From assembly GCA_964471235.1 (NCBI GenBank), contig CAYYGL010000001.1:5315-69314 (forward strand): a stretch of 64,000 nt of DNA, given 5' to 3'. This document shows, piece after piece, positions 8,692 through 46,786 of this stretch (position 1 is its first letter; each line of letters starts with the position of its first letter). The stretch is from an uncultured Calditrichaceae bacterium. Lineage in GTDB: Bacteria; Calditrichota; Calditrichia; RBG-13-44-9; J075. The notes under the pieces were generated by a model. It did no database searches. It was not told where the DNA came from and saw only the letters and a program-made list of their open reading frames with translations. The translations under genes and the position numbers were made by a program.

Positions 8692-8765
8692 GCGCCCGTA
8701 GCTCAATTGGATAGAGCATCGGACTTCGGATCCGAGGGTTGGGGGTTCGACTCCCTCCGGGCGTG
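8692..8765 (+). tRNA. tRNA, anticodon read as TCG (Arg)
   Basis: The 74-nt cloverleaf has acceptor GCGCCCG/CGGGCGT, D-stem GCTC/GAGC, anticodon stem TCGGA/TCCGA with loop CTTCGGA (anticodon TCG), T-arm GGGGG-TTCGACT-CCCTC, and discriminator G. CCA is not encoded and a T-run follows. Confidence 0.8.
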
Positions 8766-10634: not shown

Positions 10635-11924
10635 TCAGAAACTAAACTTCACCTCCAGGAACGCCCGGGAGTAAGGTTCGTTCCTGCCAAAGGGGCTGCC
10701 TGAGGGACCGTGAAAGAGGGTCGCCCCGGCAAAAATGTTCAGCCCGTCTGCCAGACCGTAGGTGAGAATCGGCAGCAGGAAAAAATCACCATCCCTCAAA
10801 TTGACCACCCCAATTACCTGCACGTCACTGAAATCGGCAAATTGGTAATGGATTCTTCCGGAAAGCGATTGGGCATACTTCTCCGGCGGATTGGGAGATG
10901 GATTTCCCACCTGGTGCAAGCGGCGAATTTCCGCGGCCCGGTCATATTTCAGGCGGATGGTCTGGATAAACTGGGCGTTCAGGGAGATGTCATCACTGAG
11001 ATTGTAATCACTCCCCAGAACATACTGAATATGGGGATTTTCCACAAACACATCCGTTCCCCGGCGGTCGTGGGTCAAAAAATAGGCGCCCTCACCCTTT
11101 AAAGAGAACTTCCCGGCAGTGGTCACGAAATCCATCCCGAATACCTGCAAGGGAAAGTAATGAGGCTCAAACACTATCCGTACCGGGAGAAAGTTTTTAT
11201 CAAATTCCGGGGTGACCAGCACGGAGGGATTTTTATCAAAGCCGTGGTAGTAACTGAAGGAATAATCGATTTGAAATATTTGGGATGCCAGCCGGATGGC
11301 ATATTCGGAGCTCTCCAGCTCATTCCGGGGGAGAGTCGGATCCAGTAGGATTACCGGCAGATGCCCCATGGAATCGGGCGCGGTCAGGGGGATTTTATGC
11401 GGGGTAAAGCGGGGAATCCAGACGCCCTCCACTGTCCAATTATCCCCGAAGTAATAATCCGCTTTCAGGGCAGAAACGGCGATACGGTAATCCTCTATTT
11501 CGGCAGCAATGTTCTGGAAATCCCAGGGATTCAGATTATCGGTGGGATTAATCCAATCGGCGGTTCCCCAGAAGATAAACTGTTTGCCAATCCGCAGGTC
11601 CAGGTTTTTTAAAAACAGGTCAATGTAGGTTTCCACCGGGTAAATCTCCGTGGTGGCAGCCCGGGATTCATTTAACCTGCCGGTGGAACGGGTTTCTTCC
11701 ACATTGAAATCAAAGGACGCGAAGAAAGCCGCCTTGCTGCCCAGATTGCGATCCAGCGTAAGCTGCAAGCGAGATCCCAGGCGGTCGAAAGGGAAGGGGC
11801 TGTTTAAATTGGGATGGGCAAAAAATTTTAAATAGCCGGAAAGGTCGACCTGTTGTGCGGCTGTCGTTAATGAAACGCTCGGGAGAAGAAATATAAGATA
11901 TAGGAGAATATGTCGAAATTTCAT
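10635..11924 (-). CDS. Putative outer-membrane beta-barrel protein (DUF1302-like partner of RND exporter)
   Basis: N-terminal signal peptide, alternating beta-strand-like pattern, and a C-terminal aromatic (…EVKFSF) typical of OMP barrels. It sits in an operon with the LolA-like and RND genes. Confidence 0.5.
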   Translation of the reverse strand: MKFRHILLYLIFLLPSVSLTTAAQQVDLSGYLKFFAHPNLNSPFPFDRLGSRLQLTLDRNLGSKAAFFASFDFNVEETRSTGRLNESRAATTEIYPVETYIDLFLKNLDLRIGKQFIFWGTADWINPTDNLNPWDFQNIAAEIEDYRIAVSALKADYYFGDNWTVEGVWIPRFTPHKIPLTAPDSMGHLPVILLDPTLPRNELESSEYAIRLASQIFQIDYSFSYYHGFDKNPSVLVTPEFDKNFLPVRIVFEPHYFPLQVFGMDFVTTAGKFSLKGEGAYFLTHDRRGTDVFVENPHIQYVLGSDYNLSDDISLNAQFIQTIRLKYDRAAEIRRLHQVGNPSPNPPEKYAQSLSGRIHYQFADFSDVQVIGVVNLRDGDFFLLPILTYGLADGLNIFAGATLFHGPSGSPFGRNEPYSRAFLEVKFSF

Positions 11925-12021
11925 ATTGACCTTACCCGGTTAGTTGTAAGTTTCACAAATCATTTGTCTTACCTGTTTTAATTGACCCGCAACGCACAGC
12001 AAAAAAGAATACCTCCTCTCT

Positions 12022-12810
12022 TTATCTTGCCCGTTGTAAAAAACGCCGGGTAAAGAAATCCGCCGGAATCCCCCGGTTCACTTCCACATTGTAAAATTTC
12101 ATCTCACTGGAGTGCCCGGTCTGTATATCCTTCATCACCATATCGGTCTGGAACCACACCCCGGCAATATTTTCCACCATCGGCACGTCCAGCGTTTTCC
12201 ATTCCCGCAACCCCCGGTCGAAGTAAAGAGATTTCACCGTCACCAGCCGTTCCTGGTCGATCCAGCGGATAATTTTTCCATACCCGGTATCGCGGGCGAT
12301 TTGTTTATCTGCCGGGAGGGATTCGATCCGGTAACACTGCCGCCCGTTCACTGCTTCATCGGGAAGACGTTTGTACGTCCAATCATTCAATTTGGGCTTG
12401 CCGATGTCGTAATAGGTAAAATCGGAGGACATAAAATTGCCACCTTTGCCGCTGGAGGCAATTCGCTTTACCCGCCGCAGCGCCGGTAAGTATAAATATC
12501 GTTCATCATCGCTGTTTTCATGTTCCTTCAACAGAAAAGCGGTGCCTTTCACATCTGCCGGGGCAGTAAAACGCATCAGCATGTCGCTTTCGTTGGGGGT
12601 GCGCTTGCGGCTGTACATTACCATTTTCCGGACCCGACGTTCCCCCCGGGCATTGGTCAAAATCAACTCCACTTCACCCTGCATATCCTGCCAGGTGGTC
12701 TTGTTAAGGGAGCGTTTCATAATCTCGTATCCACTTAATTCCTGGGCAGAAACCGAGTAGACGACCAGAAACAGGATCATGAGAATGCCTCCCCAAAAAA
12801 ATTTTTTCAT
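12022..12810 (-). CDS. LolA-like outer-membrane lipoprotein-sorting family protein
   Basis: Signal peptide, 262 aa. Its start overlaps the RND gene stop (ATGA), and this family is typically paired with COG1033 exporters. Confidence 0.6.
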   Translation of the reverse strand: MKKFFWGGILMILFLVVYSVSAQELSGYEIMKRSLNKTTWQDMQGEVELILTNARGERRVRKMVMYSRKRTPNESDMLMRFTAPADVKGTAFLLKEHENSDDERYLYLPALRRVKRIASSGKGGNFMSSDFTYYDIGKPKLNDWTYKRLPDEAVNGRQCYRIESLPADKQIARDTGYGKIIRWIDQERLVTVKSLYFDRGLREWKTLDVPMVENIAGVWFQTDMVMKDIQTGHSSEMKFYNVEVNRGIPADFFTRRFLQRAR

Positions 12811-15170
12811 TTCTTCACCTCCGGTTGTGAGCGAAAAACACTGGGTTTCATCAACAATAAAATGACCGGCAAGATGGAAATTGCCCCGAAGCAGGAGGTT
12901 AACATGGCGATGGCAATTAACAAACCCATGTGCTGAACCCCGCCGAATGTGGAAAAGGTAAGCACCGCAAACCCCAGTCCCACGGTCAAGGCGTTGATAA
13001 CAATCGGAATTCCGGCATCTTTTAAAGCGCTGCGAACCCCCTGGGCTTCATCCTGAGTTTGCAGTTCCAGCCGGTAGCGATAAATGAAATGCACAGCGTA
13101 ATCCACTCCCACCCCAATGGCGATGGAAGAGGTGAGCATGGTGACGATATTCAGATTGATATGCGCCCAGCCCATGAAACCGAAATTAAATACCATGGCA
13201 AAGAAGAGCGGAATTACGTTCAATAAGCCGATACCTACCGAACGAAACAGAATTGAAGTTACCGCAGTAACCAGCAGCAGTGATACCAGGATGCTGTAAA
13301 ATTGCCCGGAGACCACCAGATCGTTAATGGCTAAAAATAGCTCAGAAGTGCCGGTGAGCGCCATTTTGAGATTCGGGAAATGCTCTCGGATATATTGCCG
13401 GGTTTTCCGGTCAATCTCCCGCAATACATTGCTGGATTCGGTATCAATAAAGGCGTTGATGCGGGCAATCCGGTAGTCGTAATTCACCAGGTTGGCTAAG
13501 TCTTCCGGTTTACCGGACATCTCATACAACTGCAAATATTGGGAGATTAACTCCCTTCCGGGCACCCGGAATGCCACCTCCTTTTCCACCCATTTACCGT
13601 TTACTTCCACCCAATCGATGCCCACCTCCTGAACGGTATCCGCCGGAATGCGGTCATACGCCGGATCATCGGCATGGAGTACTTTGTTCATTCGCCGGAT
13701 GTAATCCGTTAAAGAGAGGGTGGCACCCACATGGGGTAGCGATTTCAGGTAAGTCTCCAGAGAATCCATTCCCTGCAACATTGCCGGTTCTTTTATCTGG
13801 TTGGCGCTGTCACCTTCCACCATCACCGTTAAAAAGGTGGTGCCGGCAAAATGACGGTTAATGTGTTCGTAATCCACCCGCGCCGGGTGATGCCTGGGAA
13901 AATTGCTGACGGTGTTATTTTCCAGGTGTATCCGGGGGAAGCCCAGCACCGAGAAAAGGATGATCAAGATGATAAATGCCAGAACATACCACCGCCGGTT
14001 CACCACAAAGTCTCCATAAGCTGTTGCCAGACGGTAGAAGCGTCCTTCCATCCGCCGGGTGATTGCCCGCCGGGGAATTTTTAAAAGGCTTAATGTTGCC
14101 GGGATGACACTGAGGGAGAAAATCATGGCAATCATCACCCCCAGGGCGGTAAACCAGCCCAACTGCCCGATGGAACCGATATTGGAGGTATTCAGCGCCA
14201 GGAACCCGAAGGCGGTGGTTACAGAGGTAATGATGACGGGACCGTTTAATTCCCGCATCACCTCAAGCACTAATTCCGGGGCTTTCTCAAATCCCGGCGC
14301 ACGGTGGTAATAATGATTCAGGATGTGAATGCCGTCTGCCACCGCGATAGATGCCAGAAGGATGGGCAGCATGTTGGTGGAATGACTGATGGGAACCCCC
14401 AGGAGCGCCATGATGCCAATCGTCCAGACAACGCTGGCAAGCACCACCGAAAGGGGCAGCAACACCCCCCGGAAACTGCGGAAGCTGAGCCACAGAATTA
14501 AAATAATCAATAAAATGACCAACGAAAAGAGCACCCGGATGTCTCGTGCCATCCCACGCCCCAGGTAAAACGTCAGGATTGGTTTTCCGGTGAGGTAAAT
14601 GCGGGCATCCGTCTTCAGACTATCGATATATCCTTTGATCTCCCCGGCGGCATCTTCCGGTTTGACAGTGTTCTTTAAAAATACCATGATGCCCGCCATG
14701 CGGTGATCTTTGGAGATGATGTTCTCGATGGGGAGATCACTGTGATACAGAATCTGACGGTATTGCGCAATTTCCCGGGGTGTTTCCGGTGGAGCGGAAA
14801 GGATTTCCTTCACCTCCATGCCCTCTTCCGTTCCCCGGATCACCTTGATATTAGTAGGGCTCATCACTGAGTAGACATCAGGCAGATCCTGGAGGTGTGT
14901 GGTGATATCAAAAATCAGTTTCAGAATTTTGGGAGTGAAGATGGAATCGCTTTCCACGGCTATCAATACAAAATCCCGGCTGGGAAAGATCTCGTTCATC
15001 CGATCATAAATGAGTTTGGCAGGTATTTTTTGGGGAAGGGAAGAGGTGATATCCGGATCTACATGTATCAACCGGATGCTATATCCGAAAAAGAGAGTTA
15101 ATAAGAAAATCAGAATGATGGTGGAACGGGGAAAACGCACCACCAATCGAGTAAATGAAAGCATTGGCAT
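12807..15170 (-). CDS. RND-superfamily exporter (MMPL / COG1033 family)
   Basis: 787 aa, with two 6-TM bundles each preceded by a large periplasmic loop. The GxxxD-containing TM segments are typical of MMPL-type RND proteins. Confidence 0.8.
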   Translation of the reverse strand: MPMLSFTRLVVRFPRSTIILIFLLTLFFGYSIRLIHVDPDITSSLPQKIPAKLIYDRMNEIFPSRDFVLIAVESDSIFTPKILKLIFDITTHLQDLPDVYSVMSPTNIKVIRGTEEGMEVKEILSAPPETPREIAQYRQILYHSDLPIENIISKDHRMAGIMVFLKNTVKPEDAAGEIKGYIDSLKTDARIYLTGKPILTFYLGRGMARDIRVLFSLVILLIILILWLSFRSFRGVLLPLSVVLASVVWTIGIMALLGVPISHSTNMLPILLASIAVADGIHILNHYYHRAPGFEKAPELVLEVMRELNGPVIITSVTTAFGFLALNTSNIGSIGQLGWFTALGVMIAMIFSLSVIPATLSLLKIPRRAITRRMEGRFYRLATAYGDFVVNRRWYVLAFIILIILFSVLGFPRIHLENNTVSNFPRHHPARVDYEHINRHFAGTTFLTVMVEGDSANQIKEPAMLQGMDSLETYLKSLPHVGATLSLTDYIRRMNKVLHADDPAYDRIPADTVQEVGIDWVEVNGKWVEKEVAFRVPGRELISQYLQLYEMSGKPEDLANLVNYDYRIARINAFIDTESSNVLREIDRKTRQYIREHFPNLKMALTGTSELFLAINDLVVSGQFYSILVSLLLVTAVTSILFRSVGIGLLNVIPLFFAMVFNFGFMGWAHINLNIVTMLTSSIAIGVGVDYAVHFIYRYRLELQTQDEAQGVRSALKDAGIPIVINALTVGLGFAVLTFSTFGGVQHMGLLIAIAMLTSCFGAISILPVILLLMKPSVFRSQPEVKK

Positions 15171-15473: not shown

Positions 15474-15732
15474 CAGAAAAAGTTTTGATGACAAAAAACA
15501 GATTTCTAGAGCAACTCTTTCTTTTCTACCTCCTAAATAGCTACTACCTGAGTAGTTGCGTAATTTTAAACAATTTACAGAACTGCGAAAAACGGGCGGT
15601 AAATTTTGTTTGTGTCCGGGCAAGATGCTTCCAATAGATGGCATCGTCAAAAGATTACCGGGGGGCATGCCGGGTATCAACTGCAAACAGCCGGATTTTG
15701 AAAATCCGGAGTCAATTGAACATCACGAAAGT

Positions 15733-16785
15733 TTACTCTCTCCGCGCTGGCGGCAAATGCTCCCGGGCGCGGGCTTCCCGTTCCGCCATTTCCTTCACTT
15801 TCCACTGCTTTACTTTTACCTGCTCCTTTATTAACTCCAGCGATTGCAGGAAGATATCTTTGGTGATTTGATCCAGTTGAAAGTCTGCTTCTTCGGTTAA
15901 AAGCGTTTCCAGGGTGATATCGGTAAAATCGGCTATTACCGGTTTATTGTTGGCAGAGGCAAGGTCCTCGATTGCCCCGTTAATCACATTAAATACGATG
16001 TCACTGATGGCTTTTTCCAGGTTGTCGGCAATGATGGACCCGAACACCGGGATCTGGCTGATGGTGTTGATCTCGCGATTTTTATCCACCGCTTCGGCAA
16101 TGCGCCGGTCCACGTATTTTTTAATGTCTTCATGATAAGCGTGATGGGCATCGGCAGACACCTTTTGCACCCGCCGGGCAATCCATTCCACCAGAAATTC
16201 TTTCTGAGGGGAAATCACTTCCCGGAGCACCCGGTTGGTTACCGGGGTGCCGTGCCGAATTTCTTCCTGCACTCCTTCAATGATGTTCACCACTACCCGG
16301 TCGGAGATTTCTTCTACCAGAATGTTGTAGTACTTCACTCCCTTTTCAAAAAGGTAGGTTTTGGTCAAATCGATGATTTGCAGTTTATGTAGTCGAATAA
16401 TGATTGAAATAACCCGCAGAATCCGCAGAAACCGGAAGGAGAGCACCGGAACGCATCCCAACAAATCGTACCAGTGGATGAACGGGTAGAAAAACCAGCG
16501 GTGGTAGATATGGCGCCGGGCGGCGAGAACCCAGCGCAGACTGAATTCCAAAAGAAAAATGATGACAAACCCAAGATCGATAATTAAAAAATTCCGGTGG
16601 ATACGCGTTTCGTAAAAATAATAAAAATCGGGGGTATAGCGGGAAAGGAGATTCTGGAGGGTCTCAGTGATGAATAACCAGTCAAACAGGATTAATCCCA
16701 GGTTAATCATCAGCAAACCCAGCATAAATACATCCAAAATGATAATTTCCACGTTGCGATTCTTCAAAATTTTAGATAGCTTCAT
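15733..16785 (-). CDS. Voltage-sensor-domain (S1-S4) membrane protein with a ~200-aa cytoplasmic C-terminal domain and no pore domain
   Basis: Four N-terminal TM helices carry the canonical VSD signature. This includes the S2 FLLEF charge-transfer Phe/Glu, S3 YDLL, and S4 RFLRILRVISIIIRL with Arg every third residue. No hydrophobic segment follows S4. Confidence 0.55.
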   Translation of the reverse strand: MKLSKILKNRNVEIIILDVFMLGLLMINLGLILFDWLFITETLQNLLSRYTPDFYYFYETRIHRNFLIIDLGFVIIFLLEFSLRWVLAARRHIYHRWFFYPFIHWYDLLGCVPVLSFRFLRILRVISIIIRLHKLQIIDLTKTYLFEKGVKYYNILVEEISDRVVVNIIEGVQEEIRHGTPVTNRVLREVISPQKEFLVEWIARRVQKVSADAHHAYHEDIKKYVDRRIAEAVDKNREINTISQIPVFGSIIADNLEKAISDIVFNVINGAIEDLASANNKPVIADFTDITLETLLTEEADFQLDQITKDIFLQSLELIKEQVKVKQWKVKEMAEREARAREHLPPARRE

Positions 16786-31752: not shown

Positions 31753-34121
31753 ATTTTACCTCCGGTTGGTTTGTCGATAACGGGCAGGGATTTCCGTTTG
31801 TGCAGGGGCACTCCCTGCGAGTGAAATATCGTTATCTGTTGTGTATTGAATTCCAGCAAATAGTGTTGAATGATTAATTCCGCAAGATGTTGAATTCTTT
31901 CCACATCGGAAAAAGTGTTGATAGTCAACTGTTCCGGTAGGGCATAAATTTTTTGCCCGTCGGCTTTTAATATTTTTGGCAAAATCTCCGGATGGATAAT
32001 GAGATGATACAACTGCTGGGCAGATTTAAAGCGCAGTGTTTCCAGGTAAAGGCGATCCCAATCCACCACATCCCAGATATCTTTGTTGACAGCGACCGGT
32101 TTTGCACGGGATACTCCGGAGTTTCCTACTCCCTCTGATGTGATTTGTGAAAAAACCGGACGGATATCAACCCGGAGCTTTTTCAGGATGTTATTGTTCA
32201 CGGAAACTTCTACTGCCGGTGCGTTCCCGTTTTCTGAAGAAACAGGTGGTGTTATTGCCGGCTCCAAAGCAGGTGTGGAGGATGTGCCGGGTCGATCCGT
32301 TCGCTTATCTCTTCCGTTTGTCTGAATCCCTTCTTTGACAATGGCGTTCAAAAAGGCGTTCATATAATCTGCGTTCAGTCCGTAAATATAAAGTGTTTGT
32401 AAGCAGGCGATTTCCGGGCGGGCAGTGGCTTCTCTCCTCAGAGAAAAATCTTTTCCTTTCAGGCGAACCCCTCTACCGAATAGCTGAATAATCTGGGGAC
32501 CTTCTCCTTTTCCCATGTTCATCAATACCATGGTCGAGACCCGCCAGCTATTCCACCCTTCGATAAATTTTTTTGCACCGATAAGCAGGTTGATGGGAGA
32601 ACGGGCAGTATTGATATCCTCAAACAGGGAGGCGGAAAAGTAATCCGGTTTCACCTCGATTCCATTGCTTGCCAGCAGTTTTTTGAGCGGCGCAACATTT
32701 CCAACATGGATAATGCCGAAATAATTCCCGGCTCCGTTGGTTTTCAATCCTAATTCTCCATCGCCATGTAAAATTTCGTAAACTTCAAGTTCCCCGCTCC
32801 CATGAAATACCAGCCGGAATAACTTCTCCTGTTGTGCCTGCCGATCATCCGCTGGGGAATTAAGCAAGTCACCCACAGGGAGATTTGCCGGTATCGCCGA
32901 TAGAATCCATTGGATGTGTTCCCATAATCGCCCCGGATCATGAAGAATTTTTTTCGGGGACATCGTGATTGAGAGGATGTCGGAATCCTGCTTTTTTCCC
33001 GCCACCCGGCTGCCCACAAACACCCAGAGAGGTTTCTCAAGCTGGTAAGTGTTTATATCGATTTCTCCGGACTGAAAAAGGGAAAGCTGCCGGTAAAAGG
33101 TTGACAGTGCCCCGGACAGCACCCCCTGTTGCACTTCCGGTGTGTAGTGATCTTTATGAAGGTTCACCGCCTGGAACGCCTTGCCATACCTGTCTTCATA
33201 GAAAAAACGGTAAGAAAAATCAAAAATAATGGATTTGGCATATTCCGAGAGTAGAAAGCTATTCTTGCCGATTACCTGGGCAAAAGTAGCACTGTATTCG
33301 ATAATTATGCCCTGGGTTGCCAGTTTTTCCCGCAGGGTCTTCCAGCGTTTTTCCTCGGATTTCTGCCCCTTATGCCCCTCATCGATGAAAATGAGGTTTT
33401 TCCCTTCAAAAGCCGCGACATCCACCCTTACCCCGCCGGAAAGTTTTTGGTCCATCAACTTGTGAATGTCGATGACCAATACCTCATTTCGGCGGGTATA
33501 AAGGTTGTCCGGGTTGCCGTCATATAACTTTGCTGGTATGCCGCTCAGTTGATACTCCTGCCAGTGTTGACGGGACATACCTTCGTTTGGGGTGATCAGC
33601 AAAATATTATCCCAGGTGAAAGGGGTATAGTGCAGCACCTGCCAGTAGTTGATGTGCATAATCAAAGTTTTACCGCTGCCGGTTGCCATCCAGTAGGCAA
33701 TTTTGTGTAGGTCCGGTTCATGAAATGGCGGAATTGACTGCGAATGACGTCGATTAAATTCTTCTAAAAACAAATTTAAGTCGGATAAAAAGCCGGAGAC
33801 ATCGGTAAACAACCGGTCAAAATAGATTTCGCTGAACAGGGCTGCCAACTGCTGGAAGTATTTCAATCGGAATTGGGGTTGTTGACGATTGGCGCGCAGA
33901 CGGGATTGGTAGGAGTCAATCGATTGTTGGTAGTTGAATAATTTTTCCGGTGATAGTTTAGAACGCCCGCTTTGTTGTAAAGCATCCCAGAACGTATCAT
34001 GGAACTTAACGGATGAAACAGGGGAGGGGAGAGGGAGTATTGCTCTCAGGCGAGCAAACTCATCCACCCCGAGTAAATCCAGGAAAAAATGAAACAGGAC
34101 CAGGTGTTTTTGTAATTTCAT
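31749..34121 (-). CDS. SF2 helicase, ResIII-type (type III restriction Res-subunit-like) with DEGH box
   Basis: Motif I WMATGSGKT, motif II IFIDEGH, motif III YSATF, and motif VI QLFGRGVRL. It has a ~145-aa N-terminal and ~240-aa C-terminal extension without an obvious PD-(D/E)xK motif. Confidence 0.75.
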   Translation of the reverse strand: MKLQKHLVLFHFFLDLLGVDEFARLRAILPLPSPVSSVKFHDTFWDALQQSGRSKLSPEKLFNYQQSIDSYQSRLRANRQQPQFRLKYFQQLAALFSEIYFDRLFTDVSGFLSDLNLFLEEFNRRHSQSIPPFHEPDLHKIAYWMATGSGKTLIMHINYWQVLHYTPFTWDNILLITPNEGMSRQHWQEYQLSGIPAKLYDGNPDNLYTRRNEVLVIDIHKLMDQKLSGGVRVDVAAFEGKNLIFIDEGHKGQKSEEKRWKTLREKLATQGIIIEYSATFAQVIGKNSFLLSEYAKSIIFDFSYRFFYEDRYGKAFQAVNLHKDHYTPEVQQGVLSGALSTFYRQLSLFQSGEIDINTYQLEKPLWVFVGSRVAGKKQDSDILSITMSPKKILHDPGRLWEHIQWILSAIPANLPVGDLLNSPADDRQAQQEKLFRLVFHGSGELEVYEILHGDGELGLKTNGAGNYFGIIHVGNVAPLKKLLASNGIEVKPDYFSASLFEDINTARSPINLLIGAKKFIEGWNSWRVSTMVLMNMGKGEGPQIIQLFGRGVRLKGKDFSLRREATARPEIACLQTLYIYGLNADYMNAFLNAIVKEGIQTNGRDKRTDRPGTSSTPALEPAITPPVSSENGNAPAVEVSVNNNILKKLRVDIRPVFSQITSEGVGNSGVSRAKPVAVNKDIWDVVDWDRLYLETLRFKSAQQLYHLIIHPEILPKILKADGQKIYALPEQLTINTFSDVERIQHLAELIIQHYLLEFNTQQITIFHSQGVPLHKRKSLPVIDKPTGGKI

Positions 34122-34289
34122 CGCAAGCTTATATCATCATTCGGATAATTATAACTTTATGTCAATTCGATATAAAAAAATAGAACGCGGATGGACCCGG
34201 ATGACCCGGATTTTCGCAGATTTTTTTGATATGATAACCAATCATCCATGTAAATCATCATTTGGGTTCTATGTCAAGTTACGTCGAAC

Positions 34290-35111
34290 TCACGTTAACT
34301 TATTTAAAAGCCAATCGCCCAGGAATTTGTCAAGTGTCATTTTGTGCATCTCATTATATCCAAACAAAATTCTCTGTTCCTTGCGATGGGGGTCGAAGAA
34401 TGCCGGCGAGCGCACCGCTAACTTTCTCTCCTGCATAAAATTGTAAATATAGCAGGTGGTTGTGTCCTGTTCCGGTAAAAACATCAGGTAAAAGCGAAAA
34501 TTTTTCAGCATCTCCGGGTTAACAATATCCGTAACAATTTCCCGAAACGAAAGATATTGCCCATGCCCGATGCTGCCGCCTCCCTGAGTATAGAGCTTTT
34601 CTTCCAGCAATGTCAACCGATTATCGGCTTCGTGAAAAATCAGAAAATCAATGTCAGTGCTGGCAACCCTGCCGTACATATTCAGGCGTAAAAATTTGCT
34701 TAATGACGATACCCGGGCACTTTCCCTGATCGTTGCGGTGCTGGGTTGCCACTCTTCTTTGCCATCACACTTTAAGACTTGTAATAAAAATTTTGCCAGA
34801 TGGTCCGGATTCTCAAATGACTTTTGGGTGGCGGCTTTTAAGCTTCGGATATGGATTCGGTCCTCTTCCCAGAAGATGTTTCCCAGTCGCAATCCAGCGG
34901 TAAAAAATGGTGCTATCTGCAGTAAGGCATTGTCCTCAAACTCCCTCTCACTCTTACATTCTTTCAGCAAAATATATCGGGAAGCCGGATTCGGATTAAT
35001 CCGATGGAGGCAGGTGGCAAAGAACAAATTGCGAAAAATCCGAAAGTCAAAAATTGCATTCAAACGACTGGGACGGGTGCCATAAATTTCATCTTTTACC
35101 GGTTTTGCCAT
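34290..35111 (-). CDS. Hypothetical protein (273 aa), first gene of the AT-rich block
   Basis: A long ORF co-directional with its neighbours. It is AT-rich with no recognised motifs. Confidence 0.45.
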   Translation of the reverse strand: MAKPVKDEIYGTRPSRLNAIFDFRIFRNLFFATCLHRINPNPASRYILLKECKSEREFEDNALLQIAPFFTAGLRLGNIFWEEDRIHIRSLKAATQKSFENPDHLAKFLLQVLKCDGKEEWQPSTATIRESARVSSLSKFLRLNMYGRVASTDIDFLIFHEADNRLTLLEEKLYTQGGGSIGHGQYLSFREIVTDIVNPEMLKNFRFYLMFLPEQDTTTCYIYNFMQERKLAVRSPAFFDPHRKEQRILFGYNEMHKMTLDKFLGDWLLNKLT

Positions 35112-35175
35112 GTATTAAGTTGCGTTTGTTGCTGTTAAATAGATTTTGAACACTACATTACTTATGTAAAAATTT

Positions 35176-35709
35176 TTAAGTTAAATTGGGTACCCAAACT
35201 GAAAAATATTTTAGCCTAAAGTCAATATCCATTTTTATTCCGGCATCCACAAGGCAGTTAATACCTAATATGGGGCGCGCTTCTTTCCATTCATTACGGT
35301 AAGAATGATTGAAAATAGCTGCTCCACCATTCACATCAATGCGATAAGGATAGTTAGCAAAATTAGGCAAATTACTGCACAACCAGAGCGTTAAATCACG
35401 CGTGGGTTTTCGAGTCATGCTGCCATCCGAAAGTTCTACATCCACGAGACCGCCGATAGGACCACTGAGTGAAATACCTACTTTCGAAAGAGTCTCCTTT
35501 GTTATAATGGCATGGCTACAACCGGTATCGATCATAAATTCTATTGCCGGGGCTCCCATGGGAGGTGTATCAACAAATGGTTCGGAAATGAGCATCAAAA
35601 CCCGAATTTCGTTAAAAGATTTAAGGGATTGGTCACTGGATCTGAATTTAGCAAATGGCATTTTATGAATAAACAAGTTCATGATCTTATCCCTCCTGGG
35701 TGACAACAT
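35176..35709 (-). CDS. Retropepsin-like aspartic protease (clan AA, single-lobe, presumably dimeric)
   Basis: The catalytic FMIDTGCSHAII (hydrophobic-hydrophobic-D-T-G-S) and the downstream ILGINCLV match the retroviral-protease ILGxDxL flap/closing motif. 177 aa. Confidence 0.6.
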   Translation of the reverse strand: MLSPRRDKIMNLFIHKMPFAKFRSSDQSLKSFNEIRVLMLISEPFVDTPPMGAPAIEFMIDTGCSHAIITKETLSKVGISLSGPIGGLVDVELSDGSMTRKPTRDLTLWLCSNLPNFANYPYRIDVNGGAAIFNHSYRNEWKEARPILGINCLVDAGIKMDIDFRLKYFSVWVPNLT

Positions 35710-36382
35710 TTATGTATCTCCGTAAGTCAAGAGGAGGAGGTAATGGTTCAATTCGTCTTACCAAAATTTCATTCAAATTATAATTTTCTTTTTTTAAGAC
35801 TTTATATATTTCTTTTTTTGACGGTTCAATAGCTATTCGAGATTCTCCTCGGTAGGCTACCCATTTACCGGGTGCGGTTTCCATAAGCAATGGAAGTTCT
35901 TGTTGAAATTTTTCCCATCCGATTGATTGGAATTCAGATAGTAACAACGTATCGAACCGTTTTGTGATACGTTCTATCGTAAAATCGATGAGTCGATCTA
36001 TCTCCCGGGTTTGAAAAGGGGGAGATTCTTTAACTTGTTTTAATAAGTTCAAATCTTCAACTTCACCACATTCACACATCCACCACAGCGAAGCAATGAA
36101 ATCTTCTTCTGTTGCCGGAGAAACTAAATCTAACCGGCGAGTGAGCTTCTCATAAGTGAAGGGAATAATATGCCATTCTTTTTCAATTTTTTGCCATTCG
36201 TTATTGCTGCAATGTTTGGCGCTGTGAATTATGCCTGAAAGGCAACTTCCGATTAATGTGGCGACCTGGCGTTCGAAGTCCAATTCTTTTTCCGGAAGGA
36301 TATATTTTTCGCTTACTTGGATTGCCTGATGAAGATTGCTAAAGAGTTCCTGAACTCCCGGGGGGTTATGAAGTGAGATCAT
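35687..36382 (-). CDS. Hypothetical protein (231 aa) overlapping the retropepsin-like gene start by 23 nt
   Basis: The ORF shows operon-style overlaps on both sides. It has a Cys-containing segment WWMCECGEVED and no recognised family. Confidence 0.45.
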   Translation of the reverse strand: MISLHNPPGVQELFSNLHQAIQVSEKYILPEKELDFERQVATLIGSCLSGIIHSAKHCSNNEWQKIEKEWHIIPFTYEKLTRRLDLVSPATEEDFIASLWWMCECGEVEDLNLLKQVKESPPFQTREIDRLIDFTIERITKRFDTLLLSEFQSIGWEKFQQELPLLMETAPGKWVAYRGESRIAIEPSKKEIYKVLKKENYNLNEILVRRIEPLPPPLDLRRYINVVTQEG

Positions 36383-36384
36383 TT

Positions 36385-36804
36385 TTATCTTTTTCCCTTC
36401 TCATTTTTGTTTAATATGTTGTTAATCTCTTCAACCAACTCAAACTCTAATAAGTTTATTTTTCTGAAGAACCAACAATTTTTTTCTGTATAAAATTTCT
36501 CAGCGATGTTCGGATCAGCTACATGGGTAAAAATAATCACCGGAAGAGTTTTATTAACCTCCCTGATTTTTTCATAAAAACGAATTCCGGTACGAAATCC
36601 CATCTGTGTGTCATCCAGGTTAAAGCTCTTTCCTGGCGGCATCATAATATCCAAAATTATTAACTCAATTCTTTTAGAATGTTCTGTAAGAAAATAAAGA
36701 GCATCATCCACATCCGTGCATAATTTAACTGAATAACCGGACTCTTCCAATTCCATAATATAGTTCTCCATTCTTCTTTTTTCGTCATCAACGAAAAGTA
36801 TCAT
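36385..36804 (-). CDS. Stand-alone response-regulator receiver (REC) protein
   Basis: ILFVDDE and LIILDIMMP (phospho-acceptor Asp) and a conserved T and K further on. 139 aa, no output domain. Its start overlaps the kinase stop by 17 nt. Confidence 0.75.
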   Translation of the reverse strand: MILFVDDEKRRMENYIMELEESGYSVKLCTDVDDALYFLTEHSKRIELIILDIMMPPGKSFNLDDTQMGFRTGIRFYEKIREVNKTLPVIIFTHVADPNIAEKFYTEKNCWFFRKINLLEFELVEEINNILNKNEKGKR

Positions 36805-39800
36805 GGGGGAACTCCTTTAATCTTTTGGGAATTAAAACATGAAATTCGGTTGGCTTATACCGGTTTTTTAAAATTAAATCCCCCCCCAACTCCTGCATTG
36901 TTTTTTTAGCGATTGGTAATCCCAATCCAGTGCCTGCCACATCTTTATTTATCGCTTCCGGCGTGCGATAACCTTCTTCAAAAATTTTTTCTTCATAACT
37001 CTTACGAATCCCAATACCCCAATCTTTAAACTTGATAATATAATACTCCCGGTCTTCATCTAAATCAATTCGGATCGCAAATTTTTCAGGGTCATCTTCT
37101 GCGTATTTTATCGCATTTGTCAATAGGTTGTGAACAACAGAATTCAATTTGGAACGATTTACGTAAATTTTTATTTTATGGGCATCTTTTACGTTAAAAT
37201 AAATTTTTTTGTAATCAAGCCCCTTACCCACTACCAACGGATTGAACTGCTTAATTGACTTGATGATAATATCACGGTAAACAATGGTGCGTTCCTTTTT
37301 AGAACTCGGCGATTCACCGCCCAGTAAATGTTGTATCTCCTCTATTTTCAATTTTAATATTTCACAATCTGTCAGTATATCATCAAGCTTGGCTTTATAA
37401 AGGTGAGATGGGAGGTTCGGCAACCTTCGTTTTAAGAAAGATGTGTTGCTTCTGATGCCACCAAGTGCAGAATTAAATTCATGTTGAATTTTTTCCAATA
37501 ATAGTTGTCTGTGTTGCTCCAGTGCTTTTACACTATATTCCACTAATCCTTTTAAGATTTGAACATCTCGTTCATAAATATATTTACGATAACCTTTTTG
37601 ATAGCCTGCTTCTACCGTTCCCATGACCTGGTTCTTTTTTGCGGTTGCAATCATCGGAATATAGACTCGTAACAAGCGATCATGATGGAACCGCTTATAA
37701 ATATGAGTATCATATCTTTTGTCATCACTCCCCGGTGCCTCAATTTGTCTATTCCTGACCACATCTGCCTGGATATCGTTACTGTTCAAGGAGTGAATTG
37801 CTAATTGTTTGAAGATTTCTTTTTCTTCATCCGGGATCCCAACCACATATTCAGTTTGAATCCTATTTAGCTCTGGAATGACAAACGAAATGTTTACATA
37901 TTCATATCCCAACGTTTCGGTAATGGCTTTTGAAACAATTTGAACAATTTCAGTTCGGTCACTGGTGCCAACAATCTCCTTCTCAAATTGTGCCATCTGG
38001 GTTAATTTCTGGTCGAAATCTAATTTCTCGAACATAATAGCAGCATGACGGGCTAAAGACCACAAAATCACCTCATCGGATTTGGAAAATGCATTGAGGG
38101 CAGGGCTTTCAATATTCAACACACCAATCGGTTTTGACCCCCATCGAATTTCTTTTCCCACCCGAACTTCAGCATTGGAAATCACTATCGGAACTGCTAA
38201 TTCGGAACGGGTATCATCCCAACATTTAACGTAAATATCCTTCCACTCACTGCTATGGACATTTCCCACTCGGATAGGTCGTTCGGCGGACAAAGCCTTC
38301 CCGGTAATTCCCCGACCTAATTTAAGAGAATGTTTTCGGGGAGGTGAGCCACTGTATTCAACCAGATGTAATAAGCCGGTTTTAAAATCCAGCCGACTCA
38401 CCCAACCTCTTTCCGAGTCTACCAATTTTAATCCTTCATCCAAAACCAACCTCAACAGTTCGTTGACATCTCGTGTTTCTGCCATTTGTTTAATAACTTT
38501 ATTAAGCTTTTGAAACCGGCGTCTGCTGTTTAAATTTTCAATGGCAACCGAGGTCTGTAAAGCCAGGGTTTTGAAAATGTTTTTATGCCATTTGGTAAAA
38601 TGACGTTCATGTTGGAACGAATATACTTCAATAATGCCAATTACTTTTTTTCCATAGGATAATGGCATTGCCAGCATGGATTTCCAACCTAAATTTTTAA
38701 CTAATCTGTAATAAGGATGAGTCTCTATGACACTGGCATCTTCCAGATAGTAAGGTTTGTTTTTCAGTAAAAAGCGGGTTAAACATTTACTATCATTTCG
38801 TAGTACCAAATCCTTAAGGGGGGCTCCCTGCCCTTCCGGGATACTGTATTCTGAAACTACGAAACCATCTTTATTCTTATCATGTAGCCACACAATACAG
38901 ATTGGTTCGCTCATCAAATCTTGGGTTAAATTCACCACCTTTTTTAATAATACATCCAATGATTCTAAATGAGTCATCAATTCCGGTAGCTGGAGCAATA
39001 TATCGTTTAGCATGGCTTGCTCAATCGCCAGAGCTACTTTCTGAAGCACTTTTAGTAGGGATGGAAAATCATCCGAGTTAAAAGCATCCGGTTTACTTTT
39101 TCCTACACTCACCGTAGCAATAACAGCATCTCCTGACTTGATAGGAGCACAATAAATTGAATCACCAATATTAAACCCGCCATATTTGGGGTCAGTGGAA
39201 GCATTGCGACAGTAATAAGGTTTTTTAGTTTTTGCAACATATCCTGCAATACCCTTTTCTATAGGAAACGAATGTTGAATTTGAGTGCCAATCCGGGGAT
39301 ATATGGCTTTAAGTTCCAGTCGATTGGTGGCTTTATTCCAAATTCTCAAACAACACGAATCGGCGTTGGTTATTTTTGCACAAGTTTCGACAATTCGGCT
39401 CAGCTTTTGCTGAAATTCCCCGGCATCTACATTTTCATAAGAGATTTCAGCGGAAGTATCTAACAATTGAGATTGGTATCGTAAAATTTGACTTTCGCGC
39501 ATTAATTCGGCTTTCTGGATTGAGAATGCAGCGTGATTGGCAAAAATACCGAATAATTCCTTTTCCCAAACTTTAAAATGGCGTTTGGTTTTGGTATATA
39601 AATTAAGCATGCCAATTAACTTCTCTTCTCCAAACCACATTGGGGCACTCAAAAGCGATATCCAACCTCTCTGTTTTGCTTCGCGAGGATGACTATACAT
39701 AGAGTTCGGTTTGGTAACGTCTTCAAGATACCCAACTTTTTTACCGGTTAAATGTTGTTGAATCCCTGGAAAATGAATATCCAATTCCAGTTGTTTATAT

Positions 39801-40540
39801 TCTTCGTCCACTTCTCCAGTGGTTGCAACAATCTTCAATTTGGTTAAGCTGGCATCCAACATCCAAATGATACAGATTGGAACGGAAAGTAATTCGGAGG
39901 CTTTTTCAGAAACTATTTGTAAAAATTCATGAGGTGTTAAATTCTGCAATTCACGGGATAATGAATACAATATGCTTAGAGTTCTTTCCAACATTCGTAG
40001 ATAATCAAACCTTTCAATAGTCAACACAGCATGTCTAGCAAAAGATTCGAGAAGATGAATTTCATCCGGGGGAAATTTCTGTAGTGTGTTGGAAAAATGA
40101 TTAAAATAGCCGATGAGATGATTGTCACTTTTTAAAGGGTATGATAAAACTGATTGTAAATCATACCTTACGGCTATTTTGGGATTAGCTACACCTTGAC
40201 CAGATTTTTGTAGATTATACTTCTCTATAATTTCTCCGGAAGCGAATAAATTATAATCAAGAGAAGTCGATTTACCTGATGAACTGTTTGTTCTGGTATT
40301 CCTGAACGTGTAATATGCATATTTTTTAAAATGATTATCAAAACCGGCACAGGCGGCAAGTTTCAAAGTCTTGGTTTCTTGATCAATAAGAATGAGTGTG
40401 CAGGCGTGGGAATGAAGGGCTTTTTTACCCAATTCTGTTAGTCGATTCAGTGCCGACGCTTTATCTTTATATAGAATCGGTACTTTACTTAACTCATTTA
40501 TGAGATCTACAAAATCGATTTGTTGAGTAGAGGTCCCCAT
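36788..40540 (-). CDS. Sensor histidine kinase with multiple tandem GAF domains (about five) and C-terminal HisKA + HATPase_c
   Basis: 1250 aa with repeated GAF-like modules. It carries an H-box (…QHEFNSALGGI…), N-box NLLTNAIKYA, G1 DWGIGI and G2 GTGLGLPI. There is no TM segment, so it is cytoplasmic. Confidence 0.85.
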   Translation of the reverse strand: MGTSTQQIDFVDLINELSKVPILYKDKASALNRLTELGKKALHSHACTLILIDQETKTLKLAACAGFDNHFKKYAYYTFRNTRTNSSSGKSTSLDYNLFASGEIIEKYNLQKSGQGVANPKIAVRYDLQSVLSYPLKSDNHLIGYFNHFSNTLQKFPPDEIHLLESFARHAVLTIERFDYLRMLERTLSILYSLSRELQNLTPHEFLQIVSEKASELLSVPICIIWMLDASLTKLKIVATTGEVDEEYKQLELDIHFPGIQQHLTGKKVGYLEDVTKPNSMYSHPREAKQRGWISLLSAPMWFGEEKLIGMLNLYTKTKRHFKVWEKELFGIFANHAAFSIQKAELMRESQILRYQSQLLDTSAEISYENVDAGEFQQKLSRIVETCAKITNADSCCLRIWNKATNRLELKAIYPRIGTQIQHSFPIEKGIAGYVAKTKKPYYCRNASTDPKYGGFNIGDSIYCAPIKSGDAVIATVSVGKSKPDAFNSDDFPSLLKVLQKVALAIEQAMLNDILLQLPELMTHLESLDVLLKKVVNLTQDLMSEPICIVWLHDKNKDGFVVSEYSIPEGQGAPLKDLVLRNDSKCLTRFLLKNKPYYLEDASVIETHPYYRLVKNLGWKSMLAMPLSYGKKVIGIIEVYSFQHERHFTKWHKNIFKTLALQTSVAIENLNSRRRFQKLNKVIKQMAETRDVNELLRLVLDEGLKLVDSERGWVSRLDFKTGLLHLVEYSGSPPRKHSLKLGRGITGKALSAERPIRVGNVHSSEWKDIYVKCWDDTRSELAVPIVISNAEVRVGKEIRWGSKPIGVLNIESPALNAFSKSDEVILWSLARHAAIMFEKLDFDQKLTQMAQFEKEIVGTSDRTEIVQIVSKAITETLGYEYVNISFVIPELNRIQTEYVVGIPDEEKEIFKQLAIHSLNSNDIQADVVRNRQIEAPGSDDKRYDTHIYKRFHHDRLLRVYIPMIATAKKNQVMGTVEAGYQKGYRKYIYERDVQILKGLVEYSVKALEQHRQLLLEKIQHEFNSALGGIRSNTSFLKRRLPNLPSHLYKAKLDDILTDCEILKLKIEEIQHLLGGESPSSKKERTIVYRDIIIKSIKQFNPLVVGKGLDYKKIYFNVKDAHKIKIYVNRSKLNSVVHNLLTNAIKYAEDDPEKFAIRIDLDEDREYYIIKFKDWGIGIRKSYEEKIFEEGYRTPEAINKDVAGTGLGLPIAKKTMQELGGDLILKNRYKPTEFHVLIPKRLKEFPHDTFR

Positions 40541-40617
40541 GCTAGAATCCTCCTTCGGACTGGGGAATAGCTCAAATAAAAAAGTAGTAAAACTGCATTT
40601 TCCCCATATCCGACCTA

Positions 40618-41397
40618 TCAGTTACCAGGGAAAATTAAAGGTAGTTCAACATTAAGTTGGTTTGTAGTTGTTGAAAACGTACCAACTTTTATCTTAAGCG
40701 AATCAAATTCAAAAAAGACACTTAATCCTTCAGAATCGGTTCCCGTTAAATTCTGATTTGGTATTAATAGATGAAGGGTTAACTTACCCTTTTCGTCAAT
40801 GGAAAATCGTACAATTTGAAAGTGGATGTCACAGTGTGTAATTTCCGTCACGACACGTACTTTGATATGATGGGGAATAAAACATCTATCATCTAAAATT
40901 TTTTCTTTCTGCAAATGATAAATCCTGGCACTTGCTACACGCATTACCGGAAAAGGGGTTGGTTCTACATCAGAGATTGGTTCTACATCAGAGAATAGAG
41001 AGCTTGTAGTAGATTCGCATACTAACCATTTATAAACTTCATGTAATATTTCCCTGGCAGATGTGTCATTTTGTTTTGCGCGGTTTATCAAATCGATTAG
41101 ACTACTTTTTCTTGCTTCGTTTAGTTTTTCAGCCATTTCAATTTGTTCAACTGTTTTTTCCGCAAGTGATTCAATTTCCCTTTGCGAGAAAGTCGGTTCT
41201 TTTTCAGATTTAAATGGCTCAAATAATAACTCGCCTGCAACTTCCGTTTGAATCGCCTTTGCAATCTGTTTTCGAAGTTTCGGATACCTACCAAAATAAT
41301 AATCAATGTTTTTAGATCCACCAGAACGTTTTGCCCTGATGTATTCATCGACGATTTTAGTAATCTTATCAGGTTTATAGACACTATTCCGGCTCAT
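40618..41397 (-). CDS. Hypothetical protein overlapping the sigma-factor stop (candidate anti-sigma / partner protein)
   Basis: The 14-nt overlap with the sigma-like gene is typical of sigma/anti-sigma pairs. It contains a perfect 18-bp tandem duplication (40959-40994, SDVEP repeat) and no recognised domain. Confidence 0.4.
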   Translation of the reverse strand: MSRNSVYKPDKITKIVDEYIRAKRSGGSKNIDYYFGRYPKLRKQIAKAIQTEVAGELLFEPFKSEKEPTFSQREIESLAEKTVEQIEMAEKLNEARKSSLIDLINRAKQNDTSAREILHEVYKWLVCESTTSSLFSDVEPISDVEPTPFPVMRVASARIYHLQKEKILDDRCFIPHHIKVRVVTEITHCDIHFQIVRFSIDEKGKLTLHLLIPNQNLTGTDSEGLSVFFEFDSLKIKVGTFSTTTNQLNVELPLIFPGN

Positions 41398-42388
41398 GTT
41401 TGTCCTGCTTATTATTTCCGATAATAACTTCCTTCTCTAAAAAATTATAAATTTTACGACGAACTAGATGAGCATTTTTCGTATCCCCGGCTATTTGGGC
41501 ATACGTCTTCAAATGTAGGAAATGTTGGGTTGCTTTAGCGGAGGCAGAATTCGTTGAGACCGAGGTAAAAGAAATTACAATTTTTCTATTTGAATATGCA
41601 GAAAACCATTTTTTTTCAAATTCCAGCGCGTTTTTTAATGCTTGGTGGTTCCCGTCTATTACTGGGAATAAGTCTTTCAAATCATTCATCGACAGAATTT
41701 TAGCAGTTCGTAAGGATTGGCAATATTCATCAAGAATATCGGTAATTATAATATCTTGTAATTTTTTTTGAGCTCTCTGTGTCCTTTTGCGAATCGTCGC
41801 TGGGTTGATATCTTGAAACACATAAGCGATTTCTTCATAGGTAAATTCTTCACAAAATCGAAGCAATAACAAACTCCTGTCCTGATGAGGAAGACGTTTC
41901 AGAAAATTATTTAATTGGATTTTTTTTCTATCTTGTAAATCATTATGTACAGTATATGCAAGGGGTTGATTTTCTAACTCCCCCTCAACCATTTCTTTTT
42001 CAATATCCCGATCACGAAAGTTGGGATTATCTAAAGATATTACGATCAGATGTGGTTTTCTTTTTCGGGCGGTAAGGATTTGTTTATTACAAATCCAATA
42101 CAACCATTTCTTAAAATTAGTACCCAACTCAGTTTCGTCTATATCTTCAGGTATAGTAAAAACCTCACGTGCTTTCCATGCCTGAAGAAAAGTCGCCTGT
42201 AATATTTTACTGGTATCAAACTTATCAAATCCTGATCTGGTAATAAAATTCTCCAATTCTGCACCGTATTTTTTAAACAGATAAGCAAAGCACTGTTTGT
42301 CACCTTCCTTAAAGCCCCTAATTATCTCAATTAAGGACATAGGCGTTCTCCAATGTTGTATTTTGATCCACTTGCCTGAACCCCACAT
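41384..42388 (-). CDS. ECF-type sigma-70 family factor with ~130-aa C-terminal extension
   Basis: Region-2-like FLQAWKAREVF and region-4 HTH LLLLRFCEEFTYEEIAYVFQDINPATIRKRTQRAQKKL. The start is possibly at an internal Met. Confidence 0.6.
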   Translation of the reverse strand: MWGSGKWIKIQHWRTPMSLIEIIRGFKEGDKQCFAYLFKKYGAELENFITRSGFDKFDTSKILQATFLQAWKAREVFTIPEDIDETELGTNFKKWLYWICNKQILTARKRKPHLIVISLDNPNFRDRDIEKEMVEGELENQPLAYTVHNDLQDRKKIQLNNFLKRLPHQDRSLLLLRFCEEFTYEEIAYVFQDINPATIRKRTQRAQKKLQDIIITDILDEYCQSLRTAKILSMNDLKDLFPVIDGNHQALKNALEFEKKWFSAYSNRKIVISFTSVSTNSASAKATQHFLHLKTYAQIAGDTKNAHLVRRKIYNFLEKEVIIGNNKQDKHEPE

Positions 42389-42710
42389 CCCTATACCGGG
42401 AAGGCTGTAAATACGTTATTCCTTCCGTGGAGAGTTATGTTTAAAACTCGGTCTGGAAATTACTCATGAAGTATAATGTTATTGTTTTTTTAAAATACAC
42501 TCTTCCCAAAGAAAGAAAAAGAAAAAATACTTTTTACAACTACTTTATAACTATCAACTACTTTTTATTATGTGTGACATATTTTGTAGTATTATTTTTT
42601 TATTTTCCCTTATTCATCTAATCTTAATCCATTTCTGTGGGAATCAGTCCCATCCGTGAAAAATAAGACTATAATTAATATAGAGTATGTAAAATGGGGA
42701 AGGAGCGTAT

Positions 42711-42971
42711 ATGTTCTTAGAAGGTTCATTCAGAAGTTTTTTGGCAGGAAATATTTTTGGGTTGCTTTGGGGCTTCTCCGGTGTTATCGGGAGACGACTT
42801 TTGCAGATTTTTTTTGCTGTCTGTGTAATTGTGGTTATTGTTTTTATTGTTTTTGAGGGAATGGATGATGTCGTAAGTCTTTTCGAGTGGATGTTTGACC
42901 AATTACTAAATTATGTATACTTTGCCATGGGCGTAGTGAATGGTATGTTGATCTCCTATCGGCGCACATGA
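42711..42971 (+). CDS. Possible small hydrophobic protein (86 aa) in the AT-rich leader region, opposite strand
   Basis: Two predicted TM helices. It lies inside a ~700-bp AT-rich non-coding stretch and could be spurious. Confidence 0.2.
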   Translation: MFLEGSFRSFLAGNIFGLLWGFSGVIGRRLLQIFFAVCVIVVIVFIVFEGMDDVVSLFEWMFDQLLNYVYFAMGVVNGMLISYRRT

Positions 42972-43094
42972 AAGTTTGTTAGTTCTAGGTGTTATACTGG
43001 AGTGTGATGGAAGTGTTTTTGCTATCGTAACCTCTTTTGAAATACAATTTTTTCCATTGAGAAATTCCAGAGTTCCAGTCAACAGTATCGCTGT

Positions 43095-45806: not shown

Positions 45807-45892
45807 ACCGGGTCAAGTTTATAGAGTTAACGTAGTTAAAATGCACAAAGGGAAGCCGATGGTGCTAAAACCCAGCGTTATGCCGTAGAATT

Positions 45893-46693: not shown

Positions 46694-46786
46694 ATTTGAG
46701 TAGTTCCTGTTAACTTACATTAACCTGTCCTGCGGGTGTAAAACCAAACTTTTCCGCCTGATGTTTCCTGACGAGAGGTAACCGTT

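Follow-up and report, generated by a model that had tools for sequence, protein, structure and literature searches.

Do bacteria use the S1-S4 voltage-sensor module without a pore? The question is raised by a gene for a 350-residue protein in the 64,000-nucleotide stretch of contig CAYYGL010000001.1 (positions 5,315 to 69,314; assembly GCA_964471235.1, from an uncultured Calditrichaceae bacterium) that we analysed here and refer to as the window. An earlier note, made from the sequence, had read this protein as a voltage-sensor domain fused to a cytoplasmic domain, with no pore between or after them. To our knowledge, pore-less voltage sensors (Hv1, the voltage-sensing phosphatases (VSPs), TMEM266 and the sensor of SLC9C1) are known solely from eukaryotes. 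Reviews state that all known prokaryotic sensors are accompanied by a pore (2023; PMC10377628) and that bacteria and archaea have no Hv channels (2023 and 2024; PMC10377628, PMC13095418). On the sequence comparisons presented below, we favour with moderate confidence the view that the protein represents a family of S4 voltage sensors without a pore, the first from prokaryotes, in which a membrane-potential sensor would be joined to a helical effector domain not described before; the few members that have Asp in the middle of S1 might instead form a primitive voltage-gated proton pathway.

We established the architecture from hydropathy, charge and predicted structure. Hydrophobic peaks (Kyte-Doolittle, 19-residue window) occur solely at residues ~23, 74 and 111-131. 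Past residue 145 the maximum is 1.03, which is too low for a transmembrane helix, and S5 and S6 are therefore missing from the protein, as had been claimed; by the same measure, the helix that follows S4 (residues 144-178) is insufficiently hydrophobic to cross the membrane. The N-terminus and the S2-S3 loop each carry a net charge of +3, indicating an N-in, C-in topology as in voltage sensors, and the S1-S2 loop is neutral. Hydropathy, the positive-inside charge and the helices of the AlphaFold2 (AF2) models all give four transmembrane helices with cytoplasmic termini. The full-length model (predicted local distance difference test score (pLDDT) 75, predicted template modelling score (pTM) 0.37) is all-helical, with helices at 144-178, 182-235, 249-275, 278-296 and 298-342 after the membrane domain. 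Because these long C-terminal helices dominated Foldseek searches, we modelled the N-terminal 148 residues separately (27-sequence alignment; pLDDT 78, pTM 0.66). The resulting helices are S1 (12-38), S2 (66-90), S3 (94-109, with a kink at P101) and S4 (115-134), and the highest pLDDT in this model falls on two helices of the S1-S2 loop (41-50 and 52-63).

The membrane domain carries the residues by which voltage sensors are recognised. The gating-charge and counter-charge positions named in the earlier note are all present, namely F77 and E80 in S2, D107 in S3, and R118-x-x-R121-x-x-R124 in S4, followed by R131 and K134. Conservation was counted in 110 representatives of 50%-identity clusters, each 23-50% identical to the query, and all counts out of 110 below refer to this set. 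The sensor residues are kept in 74-100% of these relatives, most of them in more than 85%, and rank among the best-conserved positions of the protein. In S1, D18 is found in 107 relatives, N28 in 99 and D35 in 94, with Glu replacing the last in a further 6. S2 retains D70 in 102, an aromatic residue at position 77 (81 Phe and 23 Tyr), E80 in 99 (Asp in 10), R84 in 86 and W85 in all 110, while S3 retains D107 in 99 (Glu in 10) and P113 in 109. The S4 arginines R118, R121 and R124 are found in 97, 108 and 110 relatives, respectively, and supply basic residues at every third position, three being the minimum by which an S4 helix is defined. F77, E80 and D107 make up a charge-transfer centre, to which the outer acids D35 and D70 are added. 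R131 (98 relatives, with Lys in 9) and position 134 (43 Arg, 42 Lys) are also basic, but lie one position off the i+3 register, so that the S4 arginines in register number three. Position 127, where a fourth would stand, is uncharged in the 102 of the 110 relatives listed (Ser, Ala, Gly, Val or Thr). The S3-S4 loop comprises four residues and has the same length in 98 of the 110. Since the signature is conserved across these representatives, its chance occurrence is excluded. At N28 (query codon 16702-16704), Asp is found instead in 7 representatives, for example P0276, P0303 and P0331.

We next consider the relationship to known voltage sensors. Neither domain of the protein gave a significant match in Pfam, NCBIfam, PADLOC, PHROGs or PDB sequences, whether single sequences or HMMER profiles were used. 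Below the thresholds, one Pfam family recurs, Ion_trans (PF00520), whose S1-S4 part (profile positions 4-117) aligns with residues 17-137. It was matched by 14 of 38 members, and by 22 of the 110 relatives at E ≤0.1 (best E 6.1e-5), the next family being matched by 3 members. For comparisons with hhalign we used NavAb (a sequence 100% identical to P0121), KvAP (checked against 6uwm) and Hv1 (checked against 5oqk), together with a BacNav profile built from NavAb relatives, each of which shares 68% identity or more with NavAb, so that they add little depth to it. With the single NavAb sequence, 12 columns of S2 and no more were aligned. The family and the BacNav profile aligned over 104 columns spanning all four helices (P 0.0072), pairing N28/N25, D35/E32, D70/N49, F77/F56, E80/E59 and R84/R63 in S1 and S2, and D107/D80, P113/P90, R118-R121-R124/R99-R102-R105 and S127/R108 in S3 and S4. 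The single KvAP sequence aligned over S2-S4 in the same register, pairing D70/D62, F77/L69, E80/D72, R84/R76, D107/E93, P113/P99 and R118-R121-R124/R117-R120-R123. A more diverse query profile gave P 4.3e-4 against BacNav with S1, S2 and S4 in register; this alignment shifts the register of S3 (W97 opposite NavAb W76), unlike the two other profile alignments.

Several results weigh against a voltage-sensing protein with an effector domain. The Ion_trans match of the query itself scores 9.9 bits (E 0.53), below the 25-bit cut-off; HMMER family profiles found no solved sensor in PDB sequences; and the hhalign probability for BacNav is 34%, with a reversed BacNav profile still reaching P 6.7e-3. 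The S3-S4 region of the N-terminal model has a pLDDT of 64-78, and the ten Foldseek matches of that model, nine of which are sensor-bearing proteins, all have E ≥2 and are non-significant. As for the effector, the C-terminal domain has no fold recognisable as enzymatic or binding, and a partner is not indicated by any conserved neighbour in 75 related loci. Because the reversed control showed that hhalign P values are optimistic for a hydrophobic query, we built an empirical ranking from 673 real proteins of related loci plus NavAb, KvAP and human Hv1 (676 in all). Against the family profile, NavAb ranked 1, KvAP 2 and Hv1 15. In a local hidden Markov model search against the 673 decoys, BacNav proteins occupied 22 of the top 24 places, which counts as about one observation since these proteins are closely related to each other. 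Unrelated four-helix bundles (FliS, designed proteins) reach Z values similar to those of the sensors, but their structure-based identities are 3-10%, compared with mostly 12-20% for voltage sensors. Taken together, four independent lines of comparison are consistent with a voltage-sensor domain, and it is very likely that the four N-terminal helices are a true homologue of the S1-S4 module. The profile support on which the original call had been made to depend thus exists in the recurrent Ion_trans matches, the BacNav alignment and the ranks of NavAb and KvAP, all of it below curated thresholds.

The second half of the protein is also as the earlier note described it, a soluble domain of ~200 residues that ends in an Arg/Glu-rich tail. 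Residues ~144-342 are predicted to be all-helical (AF2 pLDDT 79-89 for residues 190-290). The proposed search of the C-terminal domain, made against Pfam, NCBIfam, PADLOC, PHROGs and PDB sequences, gave no significant match, and Foldseek with the full-length model returned non-significant long antiparallel coiled coils only, such as chemoreceptor signalling domains. We found no internal repeat in the domain. Its best-conserved motif lies in the first helix after S4 (E158 in 103 of the 110 relatives, E159 in 108, D162 in 107 and V164 in 100), and further conserved positions are P193, P246, G249 and W328. Residues 149-350 contain no cysteine and the domain has no conserved histidine. Relatives do not share the sequence of the Arg/Glu tail. 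Among the best 150 of 485 representatives, none has the C-terminal domain without the sensor; matches of odd length, considered as possible other architectures, look like frameshifted or fragmentary gene calls. The cytoplasmic domain matches no known family and, in this set, is always paired with the sensor. This constant attachment and the strongly conserved polar residues (E158, E159, D162, P246 and W328) speak for a functional module rather than a coil that only dimerises.

A pore encoded in an adjacent, missed open reading frame (ORF) had been named as the finding that would overturn the call. We therefore considered the ORFs of the 562-nt gap downstream of the sensor gene, the Pfam matches of its neighbours and selectivity-filter motifs in all six frames, and rejected the possibility of a missed pore, as none was found. 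A 141-residue ORF inside the gap has no Pfam match. Six-frame scans of the window and of 80 related loci for the filter motifs of K+ channels (T[VIL]G[YF]G) and of BacNav gave none near the gene. The sole TIGYG in the window lies far from the sensor gene, inside a 683-residue ORF at ~55.1 kb whose motif makes it look like a transketolase. When all ORFs within 6 kb were clustered across 75 related loci, no conserved neighbour emerged; the commonest was present in 14 of the 75 and is lineage-specific. By hydropathy, motif scan, neighbour Pfam matches and the 75 loci, an S5-P-loop-S6 pore is thus absent from the protein and from the adjacent genes. The lack of a nearby pore gene and of any conserved neighbour suggests that the gene is a stand-alone unit, and since relatives are overwhelmingly ~330-380 residues long, and full-length among the matches listed, the protein is not a truncated channel. 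A six-transmembrane voltage-gated channel was rejected for want of a pore in the protein or nearby. Neither of the findings named as able to overturn the call was made, and the reading given in the earlier note is supported.

The explanation that we think probable, by a modest degree of confidence, is a stand-alone S4-type sensor of membrane potential that drives a new, family-specific cytoplasmic helical domain. In an energised cell, with the inside negative, R118, R121 and R124 would lie beneath the aromatic plug F77, toward the inner acids E80 and D107; depolarisation would shift S4 outward toward D35 and D70. This motion could travel from S4 along a short linker into the conserved acidic helix (E158-E159-x-S-D162-R) and on to the helical bundle, which would alter its conformation or oligomeric state and so act on a partner. 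The logic would be that of Ci-VSP or TMEM266, where the sensor drives a cytoplasmic module, and not that of a channel. The analysis shows the architecture, the conserved sensor residues, the lack of a pore and the pairing of the two domains, whereas we infer that S4 moves with voltage, in which direction the coupling runs and that a partner exists.

Comparison with known systems shows what the family shares with them and where it departs. With the sensors of NavAb/BacNav and KvAP it shares four helices with the N-terminus inside and equal residue spacing in all four, as well as the mid-S1 Asn and outer-S1 acid, the S2 series of outer acid, aromatic, acid and base, the S3 acid and Pro, and the S4 R-x-x-R-x-x-R. 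It lacks their S4-S5 linker, S5, P-loop and S6. Where they have four arginines in register it has three, the R4 position being taken by a small uncharged residue; its S3-S4 loop has four residues, and its S1-S2 loop is structured and conserved. The similarity is below the Pfam cut-off. In contrast to Ci-VSP and other VSPs, the family is bacterial and its all-helical cytoplasmic domain is unrelated, with no PTEN-like phosphatase and no Pfam match. The lack of cysteine in residues 149-350 means that there is no CX5R active site, and a VSP was rejected on the absence of both the phosphatase domain and this motif. TMEM266 (HVRP1) is a sensor that has no pore and does not conduct; its cytoplasmic C-terminus is not an enzyme, and it has no known effector. 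The title of a 2019 eLife article by Papp et al. reports its regulation by extracellular Zn2+. By description, the family shares with it the absence of a pore and of an enzymatic C-terminus, but TMEM266 is eukaryotic and the C-terminal domains are not comparable.

Hv1 invites a closer comparison, as the sensor domain could itself conduct, through a voltage-gated leak of protons or cations, the C-terminal helices serving only oligomerisation and gating modulation. Both are pore-less sensors in which an uncharged residue comes after three S4 arginines (R118/R121/R124/S127 correspond to Hv1 R205/R208/R211/N214) and a long helical C-terminus follows S4, and the isolated Shaker sensor is reported to let cations pass (PMC5092046). 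However, hhalign places N28 opposite the selectivity Asp of Hv1, D112, and Asn occupies this position in the query and in 99 of 110 relatives; the 7 of 110 with Asp count in favour of conduction and form the best sub-group in which to seek it. Neutral substitutions of D112 are reported to abolish the proton selectivity of Hv1. Moreover, the RxWRxxR motif is absent, the family S4 reading R-F-L-R-I-L-R with Leu or Phe before the second arginine in 105 of 110, whereas the S4 Trp is totally conserved in Hv1 (PMC10377628). On these two grounds, the lack of the selectivity Asp and of RxWRxxR, a typical Hv1 was rejected. Like sensors that do not conduct, the protein has its aromatic plug (F77) and every counter-charge in place, and the rank of Hv1 (15 of 676 against the family profile) comes with P 0.058 and misaligned S2 and S3, from a single Hv1 template sequence. 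The C-terminal domain is much larger than that of Hv1 and conserved, and 200 residues with invariant polar positions exceed a dimerising coil. An inward proton leak would also waste the proton-motive force. We therefore regard Hv1-like conduction as unlikely.

We give very little credence to a split channel, in which the sensor would assemble in trans with a transporter or pore-only channel from another part of the genome and lend it voltage dependence. The post-S4 amphipathic helix could act as an S4-S5 linker; a covalent link between sensor and pore modules is described as dispensable (PMC4389246), and a 2026 preprint describes a VSP sensor that co-assembles with Kir2.1. Yet there is no pore-like gene adjacent, here or in the 75 related loci, no neighbour is conserved, and the conserved 200-residue cytoplasmic domain would be left unexplained. 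It is also very unlikely that the protein is no voltage sensor at all, its four helices being an anchor whose arginine-rich fourth helix is S4-like by convergence or serves lipid or anion binding, and its function residing wholly in the soluble domain. Convergence would have to match the spacing at eleven positions in four helices (N28, D35, D70, F77, E80, R84, D107, P113, R118, R121 and R124), which are also under strong purifying selection, and two unrelated channel families rank 1 and 2 of 676 against the family profile. Should the voltage-sensor interpretation be correct, the sensor module would be used alone in bacteria too, which would bear on the origins of Hv1 and the VSPs and contradict the textbook view that every prokaryotic voltage sensor is attached to a pore. 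The C-terminal domain would then be a new kind of voltage-controlled module, and the protein a candidate molecule for the long-standing question of how bacteria read their own membrane potential.

To get a broader picture of the family, we examined its size and distribution. At E ≤1e-3 there are 1120 clusters at 90% identity; among the matches listed, almost all are 320-390 residues long and none has a precomputed Pfam domain. Clustering at 50% identity leaves 485 representatives, 340 of them at E ≤1e-10 and 202 at E ≤1e-30. Relatives occur in at least 587 GTDB species, in the Calditrichota, many Bacteroidota (Cytophagales, Flavobacteriales including Chryseobacterium, Chitinophagales and Bernardetia), Balneolales, Rhodothermales/Salinivenus and Spirochaetaceae, with distant members in Gammaproteobacteria. 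The closest relatives among the matches listed are 92% identical (a Logan assembly) and 70% identical (a Calditrichaeota metagenome-assembled genome). Some members are already labelled 'ion transporter' by automated annotation. In the full-text literature searched, within the collection that it covers, we found no description of the family or of any bacterial pore-less sensor. The word 'rare', used in the earlier note for pore-less sensors in bacteria, understates the literature, where two recent reviews treat them as unknown in prokaryotes, yet the family is widespread.

Members occur in cultivable, tractable species (Acinetobacter baumannii WP_001181648.1, Bernardetia sp. OM2101, Halomonas), which makes the idea directly testable. 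The A. baumannii protein, annotated as hypothetical, has 348 residues and is 25% identical to the query (E 2e-19), with the same S2, S3 and S4 motifs. Its gene lies 15 nt downstream of a yihG/PlsC-type acyltransferase gene and just upstream of minCDE, and has no DNA-level match in E. coli genomes. The Halomonas homologue (L082:4863-5867) has 334 residues, is 38% identical and has neighbours different from those in A. baumannii. Neither protein is matched by a Pfam or NCBIfam model. A phage association was considered and rejected, as the records concerned (CAKLQH020000030.1 and CAKLQF020000028.1, both filed as 'Acinetobacter phage MD-2021a') hold rep, minCDE and ftsK and look like A. baumannii chromosomal contigs. 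A plasmid association was likewise rejected, the matched 'plasmid' records being mostly chromosome-sized.

One group of members varies in the periplasmic S1-S2 loop. An apparently helical insertion of 130-190 residues is present in this loop in 13 of the 110 representatives, and proteins with the insertion include a sub-family of 450-490 residues (P0363, P0369, P0371 and P0383), a hint that this loop offers a surface for sensing or interaction. The histidines H63 and H104 are conserved and probably lie near the outer face. They recall the Zn2+- and pH-sensing histidines of Hv1.

The features of the sensor gene and of the rest of the window are collected in Table 1. Upstream of the gene is a divergent aldehyde dehydrogenase gene, and further on are genes for an unassigned 316-residue protein, a HAD hydrolase and a DinB protein; a 955-residue ORF upstream looks like UvrA by its sequence. 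The DUF1302, LolA_like and MMPL genes downstream look like an envelope lipid or lipoprotein export cluster, and this trio is not conserved beside family members in other genomes. An inverted repeat (ccggatttt-c-aaaatccgg, 15691-15709, minus strand) lies 24 nt past the stop codon of the sensor gene, with ctgtttgc next to it; this may be a weak terminator hairpin, but was not called by a consensus terminator scan. No feature is assigned to the rest of the 562-nt gap that separates the sensor gene from the MMPL gene.

Table 1 Coordinates of the pore-less voltage-sensor gene, its encoded segments, a homologue and other features of the window
Feature	Position	Strand	Basis or remark
Whole gene, 350-residue pore-less voltage-sensor-domain protein	15733..16785	-	ORF list; ATG to TAA, stop TAA 15733-15735
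S1, residues 12-38: D18 cytoplasmic end, N28 mid-helix, D35 outer end	16672..16752	-	AF2 helix, hydropathy peak ~23
Periplasmic S1-S2 loop, residues 39-65: two short helices; conserved P52, F54, Y58, H63	16591..16671	-	AF2, alignment
S2, residues 66-90: D70, F77-x-x-E80-x-x-x-R84-W85, charge-transfer-centre motif	16516..16590	-	AF2, hhalign
S3, residues 94-113: W97-F-F-Y-P101 ... W105-Y106-D107 ... P113	16447..16506	-	AF2 helices 94-99, 101-109
S4, residues 115-134: R118, R121, R124, S127 (R4 position), R131, K134	16384..16443	-	Sequence
Post-S4 linker and first cytoplasmic helix, residues 135-178: K151-Y152 ... E158-E159-x-S161-D162-R163-V164	16252..16383	-	AF2 helix 144-178
All-alpha cytoplasmic domain, residues 179-342: helices 182-235, 249-275, 278-296, 298-342	15760..16251	-	AF2
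Arg/Glu-rich C-terminal tail, residues 331-350	15736..15795	-	5 Arg, 5 Glu, 1 Lys in the last 20 residues
MMPL / LolA_like / DUF1302 trio	10635-15170	-	Downstream of sensor gene, same strand, beyond 562-nt gap
tRNA gene	8692-8765	+	Sole Rfam match in window at gathering threshold
Multi-GAF histidine kinase, 1250 residues	36788..40540	-	In low-GC stretch
Sigma-70 region-4 protein	41384..42388	-	In low-GC stretch
N6/N4 DNA methylase, 903 residues	43095..45806	-	In low-GC stretch
A. baumannii homologue	NZ_CP043459.1 247049-248095 (L081:4821-5867)		WP_001181648.1

Finally, the window contains a stretch of low guanine plus cytosine (GC) content at 34000-48000 (GC 0.35-0.42, against 0.47-0.50 elsewhere in the window). 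Several ORFs in this stretch have no Pfam match, and it may be a horizontally acquired island.

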